From IMG/VR virus record IMGVR_UViG_3300031760_001810, positions 1 through 7,976 of that record: a stretch of DNA of 7,976 nucleotides. One strand, written 5' to 3'. Positions 1 through 7,976 of this stretch are shown one piece after another (position 1 is the stretch's first letter; each line of letters opens with the position of its first letter). The DNA comes from a virus. The notes under the pieces were generated by a model. That model saw nothing but the letters and a program-made list of their open reading frames with translations. It ran no database searches and was not told where the DNA came from. The position numbers and the translations under genes are program-made.

Positions 1-1
1 G

Positions 2-703
2 CGTGTTGTAAGGGCGTTCCTTTATTGGTGTATGGAGAAGCACTATGTCCAACAATTTAAAGTTAAATTAGTTGCCGAGCAAGAGATTGTGAAGATGACA
101 TACAGTGATGAAGACTGTATGAAATTGTTAGCCAAGCCGCGCAAGAATGATAGTTTTGTTGAGTGGCGCACCTGGGCTATTATCAACTGGGTGCTGGCTA
201 CTGGCAATCGTGCTGGCACTATTTGTAATATAAAAATTGGTGATGTTAATTTTTTAAGGCGCGAGGTTTATATCAATCGCACCAAGAACAACAAAGCAAG
301 CATTTTGCCCCTTTCAACAGCATTGGCAAATGCTTTGCAAGAGTATATTAAGATGTGGCTGTATGAGTTTGGACCCAACGATTGGTTATTCCCATCTTCT
401 ACAACCGCAGATCAATTAACAGTAAATGCGTTGAAGCATAGTGTGCGCCGCTATAATCTGGCGCGTGAGGTGGAGATGACTAGCATTCACGCATTTCGGC
501 ATACATTTGCTAAAAATTGGATTAGGAACACTGGCGATGTGTTCCGCTTACAAAAGATATTGGGTCATTCCACGCTAGAAATGACCCGACGCTATGTGAA
601 TATGTTCAGTGAAGACCTTAAAGAGGGTTATGAAGAGTTTAGTCCGCTTGACAAGTTGAAGAAAGCTAATAGCCGCACTCAACAAATCAAAAAGAGGGGT
701 TGA
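2..703 (+). CDS. int: Tyrosine-type site-specific recombinase / phage integrase, C-terminal catalytic domain. The 5' end probably lies upstream of the window.
   Basis: This frame is open from nt 2, with no stop before the ATG at 32, so the gene likely starts off-window. Catalytic signature read from the translation: LATGNR (Arg I), HAFRHTF (His-x-x-Arg), ILGHS, and RRYVNMF (Tyr nucleophile). TGA stop at 701-703. No in-frame TAG. Confidence 0.9.
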   Translation, partial: RVVRAFLYWCMEKHYVQQFKVKLVAEQEIVKMTYSDEDCMKLLAKPRKNDSFVEWRTWAIINWVLATGNRAGTICNIKIGDVNFLRREVYINRTKNNKASILPLSTALANALQEYIKMWLYEFGPNDWLFPSSTTADQLTVNALKHSVRRYNLAREVEMTSIHAFRHTFAKNWIRNTGDVFRLQKILGHSTLEMTRRYVNMFSEDLKEGYEEFSPLDKLKKANSRTQQIKKRG

Positions 704-712
704 TTACCCCTC
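689..712 (-). terminator. Intrinsic terminator hairpin shared by the two convergent genes. The U-tract is on the minus-strand side only.
   Basis: Perfect 7-bp stem GAGGGGT (694-700) / ACCCCTC (706-712) with the 5-nt loop TGATT. The loop and stem contain both stop codons (TGA 701-703 on plus, TAA 706-704 on minus). On the minus strand the hairpin is followed by TTTTTGATTTGTT (693 down to 681). On the plus strand no T-run follows. Confidence 0.55.
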
Positions 713-1018
713 GATGGCTTGTAATGCTGCCGCGAACTTCTCGTCAAGTTCGCGTCTTTTCTTCTCTTGGGCACGGCGCCGCAGTTCAGCATAGTTCTTA
801 ACCTTGTCTTTTGGTGTATAACCAAGGAACTTCTTGGCATAGTCAAACTTCAAGGTTGTAATGGAATGTGCTACTTCAATCTCTTGGTCGTCTCTCTTGC
901 GGATGTCTTTGCGCGCGCTCTCTTGTTGTATCCAGAGGAGTGCTTTCTTATCTTTGCGCGCAACTGCGTCGGCGATGAGGTCATCAATCGACATCGCCAT
1001 TATTTCTTTTGTAGTCAT
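704..1018 (-). CDS. Hypothetical 104-aa highly charged protein of unrecognised family, forming a stand-alone leftward transcription unit.
   Basis: ATG at 1018-1016 is preceded by AAGGAGGTGG (core GGAGG = plus 1026-1030, 7-nt spacing). TAA stop at 706-704. Lys/Arg/Glu-rich, helix-like composition. Has its own promoter and terminator (see other features). No in-frame TAG. Confidence 0.75.
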   Translation of the reverse strand: MTTKEIMAMSIDDLIADAVARKDKKALLWIQQESARKDIRKRDDQEIEVAHSITTLKFDYAKKFLGYTPKDKVKNYAELRRRAQEKKRRELDEKFAAALQAIEG

Positions 1019-1039
1019 AAGACCACCTCCTTAATGACT

Positions 1040-1068
1040 ATTATACTGGATATATTGTAAAATATCAA
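1040..1068 (-). promoter_or_regulatory. Near-consensus sigma-70/sigma-A type promoter driving the 104-aa leftward gene.
   Basis: Read on the minus strand: TTGATA (plus 1068-1063), a 17-nt spacer (1062-1046), then TATAAT (plus 1045-1040). The SD and ATG follow about 10-25 nt downstream of the -10 element. Confidence 0.55.
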
Positions 1069-1165
1069 GCCCATTTTGGGCGGATTAGCCATATTGGCTT
1101 ATGAGAAAAATTATTATTATATGAAAGTAGAACTCATTGAGGGCTCTTTCAAGAAAGGTTTTATT

Positions 1166-1738
1166 ATGAGTGAATTAGAAAATAAGGGTATGGAAAATCA
1201 GCAAACTCCTGATGAGGGTGCTACACCAAAGACTTATACCGAAGAAGAAGTGCGTGCTTTATTACAACAAGAGGGCGACCGTCGAGTGTCCCAGGCGCTG
1301 AATAAACAGCGTAAAGAGTTGGAAAAGAAGCAAGCAGAAGCCGAGAAGTTGCGCGAAATGGATGAGGCGCAACGCCGCGACTATGAATACAACAAGAAGG
1401 TTGAAGAACTTGAAGCAAAAGAACGTGAGTTCGCTATTGCGCAGAATAAATTAGAAGCATCCAAAGTGCTTACTAATAGAGGGCTTCCAATTGAGTTTGT
1501 AGATTATATTGTCGCGGATGATGCTGATACGATGATGGCTAATATCGAGACTTTTGACAAGGCATTTAAAGCTGCTGTCGCAGACGAGGTAGCCAAGCGT
1601 ATTGCACAACCGGCACCAAAGGCAGGGTCCGCACAGCAAGGTGGGCTTACGAAAGAACAGTTCCGCAAGTTGAACCTCGCGCAGCAGGCCGAGATTTATA
1701 GAACTAACCCTACATTATATAAAGAATTAACACAATAA
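1166..1738 (+). CDS. Phage head scaffolding protein (DUF4355-like).
   Basis: Charged coiled-coil-like protein (EEEVRALLQQEGDRRVSQALNKQRKELEKKQAEAEKLREMDEAQRRDYE...) placed immediately upstream of the major capsid gene. TAA stop at 1736-1738 overlaps the capsid SD. The start is uncertain. ATG 1166 has a weak AGAAAGG SD 7 nt upstream. ATG 1121 and ATG 1190 are alternatives. The TTG at 1076 in the ORF track is unlikely because it lies in the divergent promoter region. No in-frame TAG among 16 Gln codons. Confidence 0.8.
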   Translation: MSELENKGMENQQTPDEGATPKTYTEEEVRALLQQEGDRRVSQALNKQRKELEKKQAEAEKLREMDEAQRRDYEYNKKVEELEAKEREFAIAQNKLEASKVLTNRGLPIEFVDYIVADDADTMMANIETFDKAFKAAVADEVAKRIAQPAPKAGSAQQGGLTKEQFRKLNLAQQAEIYRTNPTLYKELTQ

Positions 1739-1752
1739 GGAGTGTATTGATT

Positions 1753-2529
1753 ATGGCACATACCATTTATGAGAACTTTGTTCTTGAAAATAAGATTAAT
1801 GATATCTTGACCACACAGGTTGATTTATCTAATTATATGTCTGTTGATAATTCTCTTACCGAAAATGCTGGTATGAAGAAGATTATTAATCGTTATACCG
1901 CTACCGGTAATGTTGAAGACCTTGCTATGGGCAAAGGCAATACCAATGATATCGAAATTGGTTTCGTTCCAGAAGAGTATGAAGTTGGCACCACCCAGGG
2001 TCGTTTTAAGTATTATGACGAGCAGGAAATGACCGACCCTATGGTAGTTGATGTTGGTCTTGATGGACTTGCCAAGCAGATGGTAAATGACTTTACTACC
2101 AAGGCTATTGCTGAATATAATAAGGCAACTCTTCTTGCTCCTGCTGCCGCTTGGAGTTTTGATGCTGTGGTTGATGCTATTGCCAAGATGAACCTTGAAG
2201 ATGAGACTGGCTTGTTCTTGCTTATCTCTCCTGCCGACCAGGCTGCTTTCCGCAAGGCTTTGAAGGACGACTTGAAGTATGTTGAAGGTTTTGTCCGCAC
2301 TGGTTATATCGGCACCGTTTGTGGTGTTCCTGTAATCGTGTCCAAGGCTGTTCCAGCAAATACTGGTTATCTTGCTACCAAAGATGCTATTACCCTTTTC
2401 GTTAAGAAGAGCACCGAAGTTGAACAAGAGCGCGATGCTAATGTTCGTGAAAATAAGGTATATGCTCGCAAGGTCGCATTGGTTGCTTTAACCGACGCTA
2501 CCAAGTTAGTAAAAATTACTATTGCTTAA
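1753..2529 (+). CDS. Major capsid protein, HK97 fold. By recollection it resembles the roughly 260-270 aa N4-gp56-type capsid family common in Bacillota siphophages.
   Basis: AAGGAG at 1737-1742 lies 10 nt before ATG 1753. The TTG at 1747 in the track is too close to the SD. Size, position after the scaffold gene, N-terminal YENFVLENKINDILTTQVDLSNYM and C-terminal GYIGTVCGVPVIVSK motifs fit. A strong terminator follows. TAA stop at 2527-2529. No in-frame TAG. Confidence 0.88.
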   Translation: MAHTIYENFVLENKINDILTTQVDLSNYMSVDNSLTENAGMKKIINRYTATGNVEDLAMGKGNTNDIEIGFVPEEYEVGTTQGRFKYYDEQEMTDPMVVDVGLDGLAKQMVNDFTTKAIAEYNKATLLAPAAAWSFDAVVDAIAKMNLEDETGLFLLISPADQAAFRKALKDDLKYVEGFVRTGYIGTVCGVPVIVSKAVPANTGYLATKDAITLFVKKSTEVEQERDANVRENKVYARKVALVALTDATKLVKITIA

Positions 2530-2537
2530 TCAATAAT

Positions 2538-2580
2538 GAGGCTCATAGGACTAATGTGCCTATGAGCCTCTAATTTTTTT
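2538..2580 (+). terminator. Rho-independent terminator or attenuator after the major capsid gene.
   Basis: Perfect 12-bp stem GAGGCTCATAGG (2538-2549) / CCTATGAGCCTC (2559-2570) with a 9-nt loop, followed by TAATTTTTTT (T-run 2574-2580). Confidence 0.85.
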
Positions 2581-2600
2581 ACACAAGGAGGTTCATTTTT

Positions 2601-2897
2601 GTGCTCGATAAGATTAAATTATTGCTCCATAAAGAAGACGATGAAAGCGTAGATGAATTGCTCCTTACATTGATTTCTTTATGCAAAGATGAAGCTTATA
2701 TCTACTGTAATTTAGAACAGTATGATGACGCACTTGATTATATTGTAATCCAGATGGTTATTGAACGCTTTAACCGCATTGGTAGTGAAGGGTTAGTAAG
2801 CCAGAGCTCATCTGGTGTATCAGCACAGTATAATGAGTTTTATAGTCCAAAAGTAGAAAGAATGTTAAATAAACATAGAAGGGTGAAATGTGTATGA
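2601..2897 (+). CDS. Head-tail connector / adaptor protein (gp6-like, putative DNA-packaging family).
   Basis: GTG start at 2601 with AAGGAGG at 2585-2591 (9-nt spacing). Length 98 aa. The acidic N-terminal pattern (LLHKEDDESVDELLLTLISLCKDEAYIYCN) and the C-terminal ...IGSEGLVSQSSSGVSAQY... are typical of this family, as is the position after the capsid gene. TGA stop at 2895-2897 overlaps the next ATG (ATGA). No in-frame TAG. Confidence 0.8.
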   Translation: MLDKIKLLLHKEDDESVDELLLTLISLCKDEAYIYCNLEQYDDALDYIVIQMVIERFNRIGSEGLVSQSSSGVSAQYNEFYSPKVERMLNKHRRVKCV

Positions 2898-3199
2898 CAA
2901 AGCGAGATACATTAACATATTTGCGCCTTCACTTTGTTGATGATGGCGAGGGCGGTGCAACAGTAGATAATATTGAAGAAGTCTCTGTGGTGCCAGCGCA
3001 CATTTCAGTCAATTCTACCGCAGAAGAAATAACAATGTATGGTGTAAAGTCATAGTGGATTTTACACGCTACGACTGACAAGCAACTTAACGATGGTATT
3101 GCCGCGCGTTATGCTTGGGGCGGCAGAGTATTTAAGATTATGCGGCAGATTAAATCAGGCAATGAATGGTTTTCTACTCTCTTGGAAGTAAGTGAATGA
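2894..3199 (+). CDS. Putative head-closure / head-tail joining protein (101 aa), readable only if TAG 3053-3055 is a sense codon.
   Basis: ATG 2894-2896 overlaps the upstream TGA (ATGA coupling), with a GAAGGGTG SD-like site upstream. The frame is open to TGA 3197-3199 except for the single TAG at 3053. The translation is ...EEITMYGVKS[TAG]WILHATTDKQLNDGIAARYAWGGRVFKIMRQIKSGNEWFSTLLEVSE. Without read-through, 2898-3211 would be an unexplained roughly 300-nt ORF-less gap in a tightly packed operon. Function is assigned from size and synteny only. Confidence 0.65.
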
Positions 3200-3211
3200 G
3201 GAGGGTAAGAA

Positions 3212-4432
<1,221 letters not shown>

Positions 4433-4446
<14 letters not shown>

Positions 4447-5596
4447 TAAACTTACTAATATTGCGGATGCTATTCGCGCGAAGACTGGTGAGAGTGATTT
4501 ACTTACTCTTGATGAGATGCCTGATGCTATTGCTAGTATTACTAGTGGCGGAAGTGCTGTTGATAATATGCCATAGCAGTTAATTTATTCCGGAGCATTA
4601 CAATATCATTTTTAGGGTGACCGTTATAAATGGGTAATTGAAAATTATAGTAATAAAATGATTTTTTAGCAACCTACGACTTTAAATTATGCTTTTCTGA
4701 ATTGCTCTTTATTACCTACTGTTGATATTAATATAACTAATGGTTGTGACTGTGAGTAGACTTTTAGCCAGTGTAAGCAACCTATACCTTATACTCTGTT
4801 TGGTGATCCTGTTAATATCCCATATATAAAAGGGAAACCTGGCTCATTAGAGTCTTTATTTTATGCGGCGAAAATAAACTTACCAAATGATTGGTTTAGT
4901 TATATTAGTTTAGAAAGTTATAATACTCATGCCGTAGCACATAGTATGAATAATATGTTTGCTGCTTCGACAATTCGTGGGACAATAAATATGAATATGT
5001 CTGTATTAGGCGACCGTGTTGGGATTAATGGTAGAAACGTTTATAATCTTTTGCCTTTTGATAGTAGCACCATAATGCAACCTGCTGTTATTGATAATTT
5101 ACTTAATATCCCAGTAATGAAATCGACTAACAATCCTACATCAGCAAGAACATTGTATTGGCGGTCTCCTATTTGTAAAAGAATAACTTTTTAGCTAAAT
5201 AATGGAGTTCCTTATGAAGCAAATTGGAATAAAATAACTTTGAATTTTTCAAACTGCGGATGGTGTAATGAGACTACTCCTTCTACTTTACGTTCTGGAT
5301 ATTCAATGACAACACAGGAAGTAGCAACGCTTGAAATTACGGATGCTACCAGCGCAGCCGCGTTAGCAGATAATCCAAATCGTTGGACCTCTAATGTAGA
5401 ATGGTCTTTATATAATAAAACATCAGCGCTTGAAACAATCGCTACATTACCCGATTTAACTTCAAGCGGTTCAACCGCTACTATTGTATTTAGTGGTAAT
5501 GCTGGCGCGAATACTCCTGGTGGTGCGATTAATACGATGACTGCTGATGAAATAGCAGTAGCAACCGCAAAAGGATGGACTATTTCATTCGTATAA
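4433..5596 (+). CDS. Putative fibre or receptor-binding protein (387 codons) with an N-terminal ADAIR-type motif and leucine-rich-repeat-like segments. Contains 5 in-frame TAG codons.
   Basis: ATG 4433 has AGGAG at 4419-4423 (9-nt spacing) and overlaps the upstream gene end by 14 nt. Track ORFs 4946-5194 and 5240-5596 lie in one frame. I checked that frame codon by codon: it is open from 4433 to TAA 5594-5596 except for TAGs at 4574, 4613, 4667, 4757 and 5192. The N-terminus LTNIADAIRAKTGESDLLTLDEMPDAIASI is a motif I recall from phage fibre and BspA-like proteins. LNYAFLNCSLLPTV and MNNMFAAS resemble LRR/DUF285-like units. Confidence 0.8.
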
Positions 5597-5609
5597 GGAG
5601 GGAAAAGAA

Positions 5610-6140
5610 TTGAGTTCAATTAAATATCGTAATTCAACTAATGATACTTGGCAAGAGCTTCAAGTAGTTGTCGGTCCATAGGGGCCAGCGGGAGCCGTTG
5701 GACCGCAAGGACCTGCTGGACCATAGGGCGAAACAGGGCCATAGGGGCCTGCTGGCCCCGCAGGCACTTATACAGCAGGAGCTAACATTACTATTGAAAA
5801 TGGCGTGATTAGTGCTACTGGTGGTTCAAATTATACTGCGGGCACCGGTATTGATATAACAAACAATGAAATAAGTGTTGATGCGACCGATTTGTCTTAT
5901 AACGATTTACAGAATAAACCCACTATTCCAACAGTGCCTACAAATATCAGTGCTTTTACAAATGATGCAGGTTATTTAACTGCACATCAAAGTTTAGTTG
6001 ATTATGCAACACAGACTTATGTTGATAACGCAGTTGGGAGTATTACGCCTGGCACAACCTATACCGCGGGCACAGGAATTGACATTACAAATGGTGTAAT
6101 ATCATTAGCTCTTGCTAATGCGAGTTAGGAGGAGATGTAA
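5610..6140 (+). CDS. Second collagen-like fibre protein (176 codons) with 4 in-frame TAG codons.
   Basis: TTG start at 5610 with AAGGAGGG at 5595-5602 (7-nt spacing). The frame is shared with track ORF 5805-6128. TAGs are at 5679, 5724, 5742 and 6126. The first non-TAG stop is TAA 6138-6140, which overlaps the next ATG (TAATG). It has an 11-triplet Gly-X-Y tract followed by three copies of a YTAGxGIxIxNxxIS motif. Confidence 0.8.
5673..5771 (+). repeat. Collagen Gly-X-Y tract in the second fibre gene: 11 triplets.
   Basis: GP[TAG] [14 protein letters not shown][TAG] GET GP[TAG] GPA GPA GTY. TAGs are at 5679, 5724 and 5742. Confidence 0.88.
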
Positions 6141-6925
6141 TGGCTGGCGAGATTAGTTCTTGGAGTTCAAGTAAAGAATGGCATCAAAACCTTGTAGATG
6201 ACTATAATGATTTAGTAATTGTTCCAAAAAGTATTTTAATTGATACTGCTGACGCAATTCGTATTAAACGAGATGGGACGAGCGCGATTCAGGCAGGTTC
6301 TGTTATTACGACTGGTAATGGCATTGCACCCGAAGATTTTGCTACTGAAATTACCAATATTCCTAATAAGATGAGTAGGCGCCAAGGACAGGTATCTTTT
6401 CCTTTAACTTGGAATGAAACCACATATTGTTGGGAAGGTTCTTTCTCCGTGCCTTCGGCTTTGACTAATTCATAGCAAATTGCTACAATTGTTTTATATA
6501 CTAATTAGACAGCGAATGCAAGCACTACCAGCATTTCTAACCCAGGAAGAATTGCTATATATAGCCGCAGTGTTATGCAGGATGCAATTGTAAATAATAG
6601 AACTTTTAATTGTTTGCCAACATCCGAGATTTTTGTATCTGGCAGTAGTTCCGGACATCGATGGGGCAGTTAGTGGTATCCATCTAGTGGGTCATTAGAG
6701 GCGAATACAACTTATCCACATTGGGTGATAGATATTGAGGCATTATTTGGTGCTACGCAAAGAACCCCTCGTAATTACACATCTGATGAGACTATTTCTG
6801 TAAAGTTTTATGCAATAACCGGCACACCATATACTCTTACTCCCAATGTTTTAACAGAAAGATATGGCACTGTTTGTCGCGGGCTACTTACCTATGATGC
6901 TTTTAAGGGCGAATGGGTGGGATAA
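6140..6925 (+). CDS. Putative fibre-associated or receptor-binding protein (261 codons) with an internal ADAIR-type motif and 3 in-frame TAG codons.
   Basis: ATG 6140 has AGGAGGAG at 6127-6134. Track ORFs 6140-6475 and 6725-6925 share one frame, which is open to TAA 6923-6925 except for TAGs at 6473, 6506 and 6671 (checked codon by codon). Contains LIDTADAIRIKRDGTSAI...APEDFATEITNI. Confidence 0.75.
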
Positions 6926-6929
6926 TAAT

Positions 6930-7598
6930 ATGGGCTTATATTGTGCTATTCCTGTTAGTTGGATAACTGAATAGATTGCAGAATTGGGCGCACTGGAAGT
7001 TGCAATGGGGCAAGCACAAGCAGCATCCGAAGCTTCACGATATCCACCAGACGACCAAGAAGAAGCAGAAGATTTTTATGATGTTTGTTGGGGCTATGAT
7101 GAAGCAGAAGTGCCAGAGTTTAATATTAACCCTGCGGTTGAAGCATTTAAATCAGCTTTTGATAATGTGATTTATACAATGTGCCCCGTGCGCACTGGGT
7201 TCTTACGCAGTAGTTGCCACTGTGAAATAAGCAATGAGTTGATTGAATGTTTTGCTGATGCTGAATATGCGCAATATGTTGAATATGGCACTTCACGCAT
7301 GGCACCATAGCCCTATTTTGAACCGGCGATTATGGCGGGTCTTCAAGCATTTATCGAGATAAACGGTTCGTGTATTGACCAATTTAAAAGAGATGTTGAA
7401 AAGATCACCCAAGATGCGGTTCAAGATATTATATTTAGTGCAGCGGACTTTGGCAGTTTAATTTTGGCATTAATTATTGCTATTTTAATCACTGCGGTTA
7501 TTGAAGTTATTTTAAGTATATTTGACCCAATGTGGGATGATTTCCGTGCGGCCATAGCAGAAGTGTTATTTGACGCCATAGATATATAGATTGAATAA
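6930..7598 (+). CDS. HK97-gp10-like head-tail joining / tail-completion protein with a hydrophobic C-terminal extension (222 codons). Contains 3 in-frame TAG codons.
   Basis: ATG 6930 lies 5 nt after the upstream TAA. Track ORFs 6984-7310 and 7332-7589 share one frame. TAGs are at 6972, 7308 and 7587, and the first non-TAG stop is TAA 7596-7598. The motif AEYAQYVEYGTSRMAP[TAG]PYFEPA matches my recollection of the gp10-family signature (yVEfGT..m.a.PF/Y..pA). The start is uncertain: TTG 6984 and ATG 7005 are alternatives. Confidence 0.7.
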
Positions 7599-7608
7599 GG
7601 AGACAATT

Positions 7609-7806
7609 ATGAACAGAGTTTATACTGCTCCTGATGGTAAAGTATATGATTGGGCTGAACCGCATATCGCTACCATCATTGAGGAAGATGGAAGCACTAC
7701 TGAACGAGTAGAGCATTTGTATGCGAAGTATTTATCTATTTCGCGCTTTGATAATATTGACAATTATATCATCGTAGATGACCCAAGGAGTGGGGCCAAT
7801 GTATGA
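7609..7806 (+). CDS. Hypothetical 65-aa protein.
   Basis: AAGGAG at 7597-7602 lies 6 nt before ATG 7609. The TTG at 7591 in the track has no SD. TGA stop at 7804-7806. Contains no Gln and no TAG codons. Confidence 0.65.
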   Translation: MNRVYTAPDGKVYDWAEPHIATIIEEDGSTTERVEHLYAKYLSISRFDNIDNYIIVDDPRSGANV

Positions 7807-7976
7807 AGTGATTAAAAAGAAGTTTAAAGAATTTCTTACAGCGATGGGATATAATGTTGGCGATAATTGGGTAATGCGAGATGAGTTCCCATATTTAAAT
7901 TTGCGAATTAATGGTGGAGCATTTGCTCCATTGCGCAATGCTAATGGAACTATCTTAACTATTACTGTTGATATTT
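7799..7976 (+). CDS. 5' part of a further neck or tail structural gene, running off the right edge. Function assigned by synteny only.
   Basis: AAGGAG at 7785-7790 lies 8 nt before ATG 7799 and overlaps the upstream gene end (ATGTATGA). There are 59 open codons to the window edge (MYEVIKKKFKEFLTAMGYNVGDNWVMRDEFPYLNLRINGGAFAPLRNANGTILTITVDI...). It is absent from the ORF track, presumably because it has no stop in the window. Confidence 0.55.
   Translation, partial: MYEVIKKKFKEFLTAMGYNVGDNWVMRDEFPYLNLRINGGAFAPLRNANGTILTITVDI

Follow-up and report, generated by a model that had tools for sequence, protein, structure and literature searches.

Phages that read TAG as glutamine (Gln) were reportedly described by Ivanova et al. 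in Science in 2014, and the work of Borges et al. on such phages is said to have appeared later in Nature Microbiology (2022). According to the preprint, TAG-to-Gln recoding occurs in many gut phage clades, among them two that are small and temperate, Garnet at 34 ± 5 kb and Topaz at 22 ± 3 kb. Curated examples of 24.4 and 23.7 kb are prophages of Prevotella and Oscillospiraceae, hosts with the standard code, and are bounded by an integrase and a host transfer RNA (tRNA) gene (Borges et al., 10.1101/2021.08.26.457843). In these phages, the same work finds significant avoidance of TAG by the integrases and the standard code in close relatives, and it detects a suppressor tRNA in only 40% of TAG-recoded genomes (10.1101/2021.08.26.457843); for crAss-like phages, Peters et al. 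describe confirmation of genetic code 15 by metaproteomics (PMC9523058). The locus analyzed here is a 7,976-nucleotide stretch of viral DNA (positions 1 to 7,976 of IMG/VR record IMGVR_UViG_3300031760_001810, referred to as the window), and within it a collagen-like tail-fibre gene at 5610-6140 whose Gly-X-Y tract contains in-frame TAG codons. The window belongs to a temperate, siphovirus-like phage of ~26 kb that carries an integrase and in which, as judged from the sequence, TAG is very probably a sense codon read as glutamine (code 15), with only TAA and TGA terminating. The phenomenon is already known and the element represents a clean new example, a well-resolved case in which TAG exchanges codon by codon with CAA and CAG among near relatives, one of them standard-code.

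In its described features the element closely resembles the Topaz/Garnet type. Shared traits include in-frame TAG codons that are concentrated in structural genes and align to glutamine, a TAG-free integrase, a small genome (an inferred unit length of ~26 kb here), an integrase beside a probable tRNA-derived attachment (att) site, close standard-code relatives, an association with Firmicutes/Clostridia, and the frequent absence of a detectable suppressor tRNA. Differences are that the att tRNA fragment looks like tRNA-Lys(CUU), whereas the published examples have tRNA-Thr and tRNA-Met, and that the scaffold and major capsid genes avoid TAG too, a bias absent from the available part of the Borges et al. 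account. The crAss-like and Lak phages have in common with the element the codon reassignment and the preferential recoding of late genes, and they provide a proteomic proof of principle for code 15, but they are about 100-600 kb in size, mostly virulent, found in Bacteroidota, and usually equipped with suppressor tRNAs and sometimes release factor 2 (RF2), whereas the present element is ~26 kb, integrase-bearing, and has strong Shine-Dalgarno (SD) sites and no detectable tRNA. At the protein level, the fibre resembles phage and prophage collagen-like fibres (Pfam PF01391; the streptococcal prophage hyaluronidase HylP, PDB 6x3m; BclA, 1wck) in its small N-terminal anchor, its short GPQ/GPA/GET-rich Gly-X-Y stalk, and its C-terminal beta-rich fibre or receptor-binding part, and it differs from them in that its C-terminal repeat modules gave no Pfam or PDB match (the PDB sequence search hit collagen tracts only) and in a collagen score just under the cut-off.

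The Fibre Gene and Its Start Site

The fibre gene, termed the target below, and its landmarks were as follows (amino acids, aa; TAG in the protein written as #):

5610-6140, plus strand: collagen-like tail-fibre gene, 176 aa with TAG as glutamine, four in-frame TAG codons
5673-5771, plus strand: Gly-X-Y tract of 11 triplets, frame 3
5595-5602, plus strand: SD sequence AAGGAGGG, overlapping the TAA stop of the upstream gene (5594-5596)
5679-5681, plus strand: in-frame TAG in the Y position of GP#
5724-5726, plus strand: in-frame TAG (GP#), also TAG in relatives L005/L003
5742-5744, plus strand: in-frame TAG (GP#), also TAG in L005/L003
6126-6128, plus strand: fourth in-frame TAG and apparent standard-code stop, inside the SD sequence of the next gene (TAGGAGGAG)

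Very probably the tract encodes the collagen triple-helix stalk of this 176-aa protein, with GPQ for its three GP[TAG] triplets. It runs from GGT at 5673, has neither Lys nor Arg, contains GP# three times and a single GPQ written CAA at 5706-5708, and closes with GPA GPA GTY, so that the initial annotation, which had described three GP[TAG] in an 11-triplet tract with a CAA-coded GPQ, was exact in both coordinates and reading. The predicted product has a conserved 21-aa N-terminal head followed by the 11 Gly-X-Y triplets, which are perfect with TAG as Q, and by TYTAGxGIxIxNxxIS and other C-terminal repeat modules, and it matched PHROG tail-fibre families at 1e-10 to 1e-6. The 176 codons of frame 5610-6137 include four TAG, no TAA, and no TGA, a pattern beyond chance, as the same stretch was free of TAA and TGA in only 6 of 20,000 mononucleotide shuffles.

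With the standard code (table 11), the sole listed open reading frame (ORF) in this frame was GTG 5805-6128 (107 aa). The claim that the tract would be orphaned from this ORF under the standard code therefore stood, whereas the gene end at 6128 did not: read-through of the TAG at 6126 adds QEEM, and the stop is TAA 6138-6140, which overlaps the ATG at 6140 of the downstream gene in a TAATG arrangement of a common type. This end of the target (AGT TAG GAG GAG ATG TAA) was kept in L005 and L024, and the counterpart in L022 (AGC GAG GAG GTA ATG TAA) is without TAG and has the identical TAA stop.

A standard-code interpretation would make the 107-aa ORF the true gene and the head and collagen tract an untranslated pseudogene remnant. 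Such an ORF is indeed present under table 11, and a 107-aa database protein (P0004, from JGI), ending ...LALANAS, begins at the position equivalent to 5805. However, GTG 5805 is the only canonical in-frame start between 5745 and 5805 and is without an SD sequence, while the lone SD-like AGGAG of the interval (5777-5781) has just an ATT codon (5787) after it, leaving no alternative SD-equipped start there. The 65 codons upstream of 5805 (5610-5804) were also under strong purifying selection: compared with the 97%-identical L005 orthologue they showed 23 synonymous and 5 non-synonymous changes, with 24 of 34 nucleotide differences at third codon positions, against 2/22 and 2/23 (synonymous/non-synonymous) in the two other frames of the same stretch used as controls, from which it follows that the frame is translated straight across the TAG codons.

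The orthologues, in which the N-terminal head is kept at overall identities of 50-62%, gave a consistent start. An ATG occupies the codon homologous to 5610 in L005/L003, L002, and the standard-code L028, in which it is preceded by AAAGGAGG; the L024 orthologue has a TTG start behind the same TAAGGAGGG; and the target itself starts with TTG (5610-5612) 8 nt past AAGGAGGG. Each of the orthologue starts has an SD sequence or translational coupling, and the head MSxIKYRNSxNDxWQELxV(I/V)VG followed by a collagen tract was common to all five loci. L028 has a single unbroken ORF that spans the N-terminus and a long collagen tract, with CAG or CAA where the window has TAG. The TTG start with a strong SD at 5595-5602 proposed earlier was thereby confirmed, the orthologues beginning at the same codon, and in place of homologues that lack the collagen N-terminus and begin at the equivalent of 5805, all five orthologues were found to start at the equivalent of 5610.

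Public translations that render TAG as Q were in agreement with the long product, comprising a 197-aa protein from a 52-kb ENA contig (P0001, 99% identical) and a 176-aa protein (P0002, 97% identical), and their loci do not yield these proteins under table 11. TTG 5610 was preferred over ATG 5547, the start of P0001, because a gene begun at 5547 would share 50 nt with the upstream gene and the orthologues give that start no support. P0004 looks like a truncation and not a true short homologue, since JGI gene calls on the related JGI contigs L007 and L102 are broken at TAG. Given in addition that in-frame TAG without TAA or TGA occurs in 7 of the 12 genes of the window and in the terminase and portal genes of the same genome, the pseudogene interpretation was considered extremely improbable. 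Purifying selection across the TAG codons together with the conserved start codon and head places the beginning of the product upstream of 5805, as had been claimed, and shows that the target gene starts at 5610.

Standard-code gene calling consequently shreds this phage, cutting the fibre to a 107-aa stub without anchor and collagen stalk, and functional or host-range inference from such stub calls would be wrong, since they lack both parts; the right products require translation with TAG as Gln. Two side observations concern the fibre locus. An extra 64-aa gene lies between the 387-aa gene upstream and the target in L005 (13696-13890) and in L002 and is absent from the window. Fibre modularity was seen in L023 (5589-8009) and L025 (11906-14308), where one ORF of ~800 aa combines the N-terminus and collagen part of the first fibre of the window with the C-terminal modules of the target.

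TAG as a Sense Codon and the Amino Acid It Specifies

In its 12 gene frames, which total 2,380 codons, the window has 22 in-frame TAG codons but neither TAA nor TGA, compared with 75 TAG, 165 TAA, and 201 TGA in the two off-frames of the same genes. Long open frames covered 0.69-0.75 of the parent loci when the standard code was applied, 0.93-0.97 when TAG was made sense, and 0.73-0.78 when TGA or TAA was. When TAG is read as sense, the plus strand becomes a tightly packed series of genes that all end in TAA or TGA and none in TAG, showing that TAG is never a terminator in these genes. The public gene calls for the parent contig already render TAG as Q.

In-frame TAG codons are present in seven window genes and, elsewhere in the parent genome, in those for the terminase, the portal, and the MuF-like protein, which bears out the earlier argument that a one-off mutation does not account for the codons. 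The broader proposal, attributing them to errors of assembly or sequencing or to nonsense mutations peculiar to one strain with a defective prophage, has nothing for it except the stop codons being present, and is contradicted by the recurrence of the same TAG codons in assemblies that are independent and differ in sample and source (ERZ27256908, ERZ27291670, ERZ27256863, and IMG/VR 3300031994). The 24-26 kb contigs also recur, and a 52-kb contig with two unit lengths suggests circular or concatemeric replicating genomes, leaving this proposal with practically no probability.

The identity of the amino acid was addressed by aligning the called gene frames of L004, L005, L002, and L007, four genomes that are related and recoded, and tallying the partners of TAG. 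Glutamine accounted for 89 of 214 partners (CAA 53, CAG 36) over a background of 3.6% Gln, followed by Glu (21), Thr (15), and then Ala, Ser, Asn, and Lys. As CAA, which is two mutations from TAG, outnumbers CAG, mutational proximity fails to explain the pairing with Gln. At the level of single codons, TAG 5679 aligned with CAG in L005/L003, CAA in L002, CAG in the standard-code L028, and TAG in L024, and in the reverse case CAA 5652 of the window corresponded to TAG in L002 and CAG in L028. Within the collagen tracts, GP#, GI#, and GE# stand beside GPQ, GIQ, and GEQ; in the first fibre gene, the TAG codons occur in GI#, GE#, and AE# contexts next to GIQ and GEQ coded by CAA or CAG. These alignments show glutamine to be by far the best-fitting amino acid for TAG.

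A sense TAG that specifies another residue (Glu, Lys, Trp, Tyr, Leu, or pyrrolysine) could draw on the minority partners Glu (21), Thr (15), Ala, Ser, Asn, or Lys, and on the label 'Pyl' that ARAGORN gives to any CUA anticodon. These minor partners are, however, the usual exchange partners of Gln, which itself reaches more than 10 times its background with CAA above CAG, and GP#, GI#, and GE# adjoin their glutamine versions in the same tracts; no pyl genes were seen in the genome. Assignment to another amino acid was accordingly regarded as very improbable.

Some points weigh against reading TAG as glutamine in this phage and against the collagen stalk. The partner tally consists of pairwise comparisons among only four related genomes, which are non-independent; the Pfam Collagen score of the target (23.9 bits) is below the 27.2-bit threshold; no gene for a suppressor tRNA, a release factor (RF), or an aminoacyl-tRNA synthetase (aaRS) that would serve UAG decoding was found in the ~25 of ~26 kb scanned; and a standard-code host is assumed solely from relatives in Clostridia/Bacillota genomes.

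Gene Content and Unequal TAG Usage

The genes of the window, annotated from PHROGs and Pfam, comprised, besides the target fibre gene:

1-703, plus strand: tyrosine integrase, 3' part (322 aa in the full contig), no TAG
704-1018, minus strand: divergent 104-aa ORF, no family match
1121-1738, plus strand: scaffold (DUF4355), TAG-free
1753-2529, plus strand: major capsid, TAG-free
2601-2897, plus strand: gp6-like head-tail adaptor (Pfam Phage_connect_1, 44.5 bits)
2888-3199, plus strand: head-closure-like gene, 103 aa, one in-frame TAG
3212-3541, plus strand: gene with an open frame when TAG is read as sense
3541-4446, plus strand: first collagen-like fibre, 301 aa, seven in-frame TAG (Pfam Collagen, 93.4 bits)
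4433-5596, plus strand: 387-aa gene between the two fibres with no assigned function, five in-frame TAG
6140-6925, plus strand: 261-aa gene downstream of the target, three in-frame TAG
6930-7598, plus strand: 222-aa gene with a weak match to the tail completion/Neck1 family, three in-frame TAG
7609-7806, plus strand: gene with an open frame when TAG is read as sense
Running past the window end, plus strand: tail-terminator-like gene with an open frame when TAG is read as sense

The public TAG=Q calls on the parent contig miss the head-tail adaptor at 2601-2897 and leave a gap between the capsid and the 103-aa gene; the JGI and ENA calls on relatives do include it.

TAG codons were unequally distributed among the genes. 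In the parent genome, TAG was counted five times in the terminase large subunit (TerL), four in the portal, three in the MuF-like gene, seven in the first fibre, and four in the target, while the integrase, scaffold, and capsid had none and a giant ORF had three in 2,300 codons. Pooled over 14 recoded relatives (six for the integrase), TAG/(TAG+CAA+CAG) was 0/50 in the integrase, 6/194 in the scaffold, 5/69 in the capsid, and 338/1,319 (26%) in the other genes, giving a Fisher p = 2e-22 for the gene-class bias among loci that are not independent. In the scaffold and capsid, TAG is probably scarce because a codon that is decoded inefficiently is selected against in the proteins with the highest expression, and the TAG-poor scaffold, capsid, and giant ORF together suggest that selection disfavors TAG in genes that are the most strongly expressed or the longest. 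In the proposal of Borges et al., an integrase without TAG could be made in the standard-code state of the host, and TAG-bearing late genes would need a suppressing state. TAG avoidance in the scaffold and capsid besides the integrase bears on whether recoding serves as a lysis-lysogeny switch or is partly a matter of translational efficiency.

Genome Organization, Relatives, and Host

Contigs with these genes were 24-26 kb long (ENA, JGI, and IMG/VR). The gene order starts with the giant ORF, a Prophage_tail protein, an HNH endonuclease, three small ORFs, the terminase small subunit (TerS), TerL, an SPP1-type portal, the MuF-like gene, and the tyrosine integrase. It continues through the divergent 104-aa ORF, scaffold, capsid, adaptors, first fibre, 387-aa protein, target fibre, and 261-aa protein, to the Neck1-like protein, tail terminator, tail tube (Phage_tail_2), two small ORFs, and the giant ORF again. 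The 52-kb ENA contig contains two unit lengths ~25.9 kb apart that are slightly different, with giant ORFs of 2,969 and 2,935 aa. No tape-measure, lysin, holin, or replication genes were recognised in the scanned portion of the genome.

Two aspects of this organization were recorded as side observations. The integrase and divergent 104-aa ORF (window 1-1120; L004 8615-9898) lie amid the morphogenesis genes, with the MuF-like gene on one side and the scaffold gene on the other, and not at a genome end by regulatory genes, an arrangement conserved in L002, L005, and L006. The single giant ORF of about 2,935-2,969 aa (L001 13693 onward; L004 1-1085) makes up one third of the genome and has a distal-tail-protein-like start and a highly repetitive sequence with no Pfam or PHROG family match.

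The window differed from the 52-kb contig k141_100508 by 12 mismatches over 7,976 bases, of which 10 fall at window positions 13-281 in the integrase gene and the other two at 1992 and 2007 in the capsid gene; it therefore represents a separate assembly or strain that is almost the same. No match among GenBank phages was obtained when the whole window was searched by Megablast, and the nearest deposited capsids by tblastn were from Streptococcus and Staphylococcus prophages (~28% identity). Relatives with 46-70% capsid identity were found in Clostridia/Bacillota genomes and metagenome-assembled genomes (MAGs), such as a Dorea ammoniilytica isolate, and strong AGGAGG sites stand ahead of genes. 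We infer a Bacillota host from these relatives, the nearest capsids, and the AGGAGG sites. Exact-protein look-ups gave free phage-sized contigs only and no integrated copy of the phage.

Judged by long-ORF coverage, the capsid family included recoded members (L001-7, L009, L021-25, L032, L036, L038, and L043) and standard-code members with 62-75% capsid identity (L010, L026-29, L034, L039, and L040). A single family of ~25-kb genomes thus mixes standard-code and TAG-recoded phages, interleaved at capsid identities of 62-83%, which implies that the code changes over short evolutionary distances.

Decoding of UAG

Default ARAGORN detected no tRNA in the window, across ~25 of the parent genome's ~26 kb, or in any of 14 recoded relatives among 100 loci scanned, and Rfam gave no tRNA at gathering thresholds or at E ≤ 10. 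Searches of the accessory genes and of 2,100 aa of the giant ORF with Pfam and PHROG likewise gave no release factor, aaRS, or tRNA-modifying domains. UAG would be decoded during lytic growth by a glutamine suppressor tRNA with a CUA anticodon or an equivalent factor, and this suppressor, not detectable in the phage genome, would come in trans from the host or a co-resident element or be non-canonical.

Recoding that is not autonomous to the phage, with the UAG-decoding tRNA provided by the host or a co-resident prophage, is an alternative, judged less likely than not, that disputes the source of decoding only and not the meaning of TAG. It agrees with the lack of a tRNA in the parent genome and recoded relatives and of RF or aaRS domains in the accessory genes, and the occurrence of a tRNA(CUA) in L019, a distant and lightly recoded prophage in a Bacillota MAG, indicates that such tRNAs circulate in this host range. 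Opposed to it, TAG is strongly avoided by the integrase, scaffold, and capsid genes, which argues against a codon that the cell decodes freely at all times, undetected non-canonical phage tRNAs are deemed likely by Borges et al. (10.1101/2021.08.26.457843), and ~0.9 kb inside the giant ORF lies outside the scan. A stronger form, in which the ~26-kb recoded clade has no UAG-decoding gene of its own and its late genes are translatable only with amber suppression by the host or a co-resident prophage such as an L019-type element with its tRNA(CUA), or via an undescribed non-tRNA-like factor, was viewed as still more doubtful; its basis is the absence of any tRNA, RF, or aaRS in about 96% of the genome and in the 14 relatives. 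If true, the state of the genetic code would be a matter in which mobile elements, or a phage and its host, depend on one another in trans. The lack of a recognised decoding gene in a nearly fully read 26-kb genome bears on how small recoded phages decode UAG.

One candidate suppressor was evaluated and rejected. At a 90% threshold, ARAGORN called an 88-nt tRNA(CTA) at L004 8400-8487, between the MuF-like and integrase genes and about 400 nt upstream of the window. The call has C33 instead of U33 and a poor D arm, and scored just 14.7 bits with the Rfam tRNA model. Only its 3' part was kept across six relatives, the CTA-bearing 5' part being not conserved and missing from the recoded relatives L002, L023, and L025.

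The spacer that contains it (L004 8363-8615, intergenic between the MuF-like and integrase genes and about 270-520 nt upstream of window position 1) has a segment of 45 nt, CTCTTAATCAGGGTGTCCAGGGTTCGAGCCCCTGATGGTGCACCA, conserved in the six-relative alignment. This segment comprises the anticodon loop of tRNA-Lys(CUU), the 3' anticodon stem, the T arm, the 3' acceptor strand, and ACCA, and is probably the attP copy of the 3' half of a host tRNA gene. Beyond it come a terminator hairpin that shows compensatory changes and a TTGACA-17-TATAAT promoter for the integrase, and the 9-mer TAATCAGGG is present three times in the spacer.

The L019 locus is a prophage-like region on a 156-kb Bacillota MAG contig (JAFADG010000026.1), with a capsid of 50% identity. 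Its TerL has two internal TAG codons and its portal, MuF, and capsid genes one each (5709-10792). The tRNA(CUA) lies at 4545-4622, was called at the default ARAGORN threshold, and stands just upstream of the terminase module, so that L019 may represent an intermediate or self-sufficient state of the same recoding.

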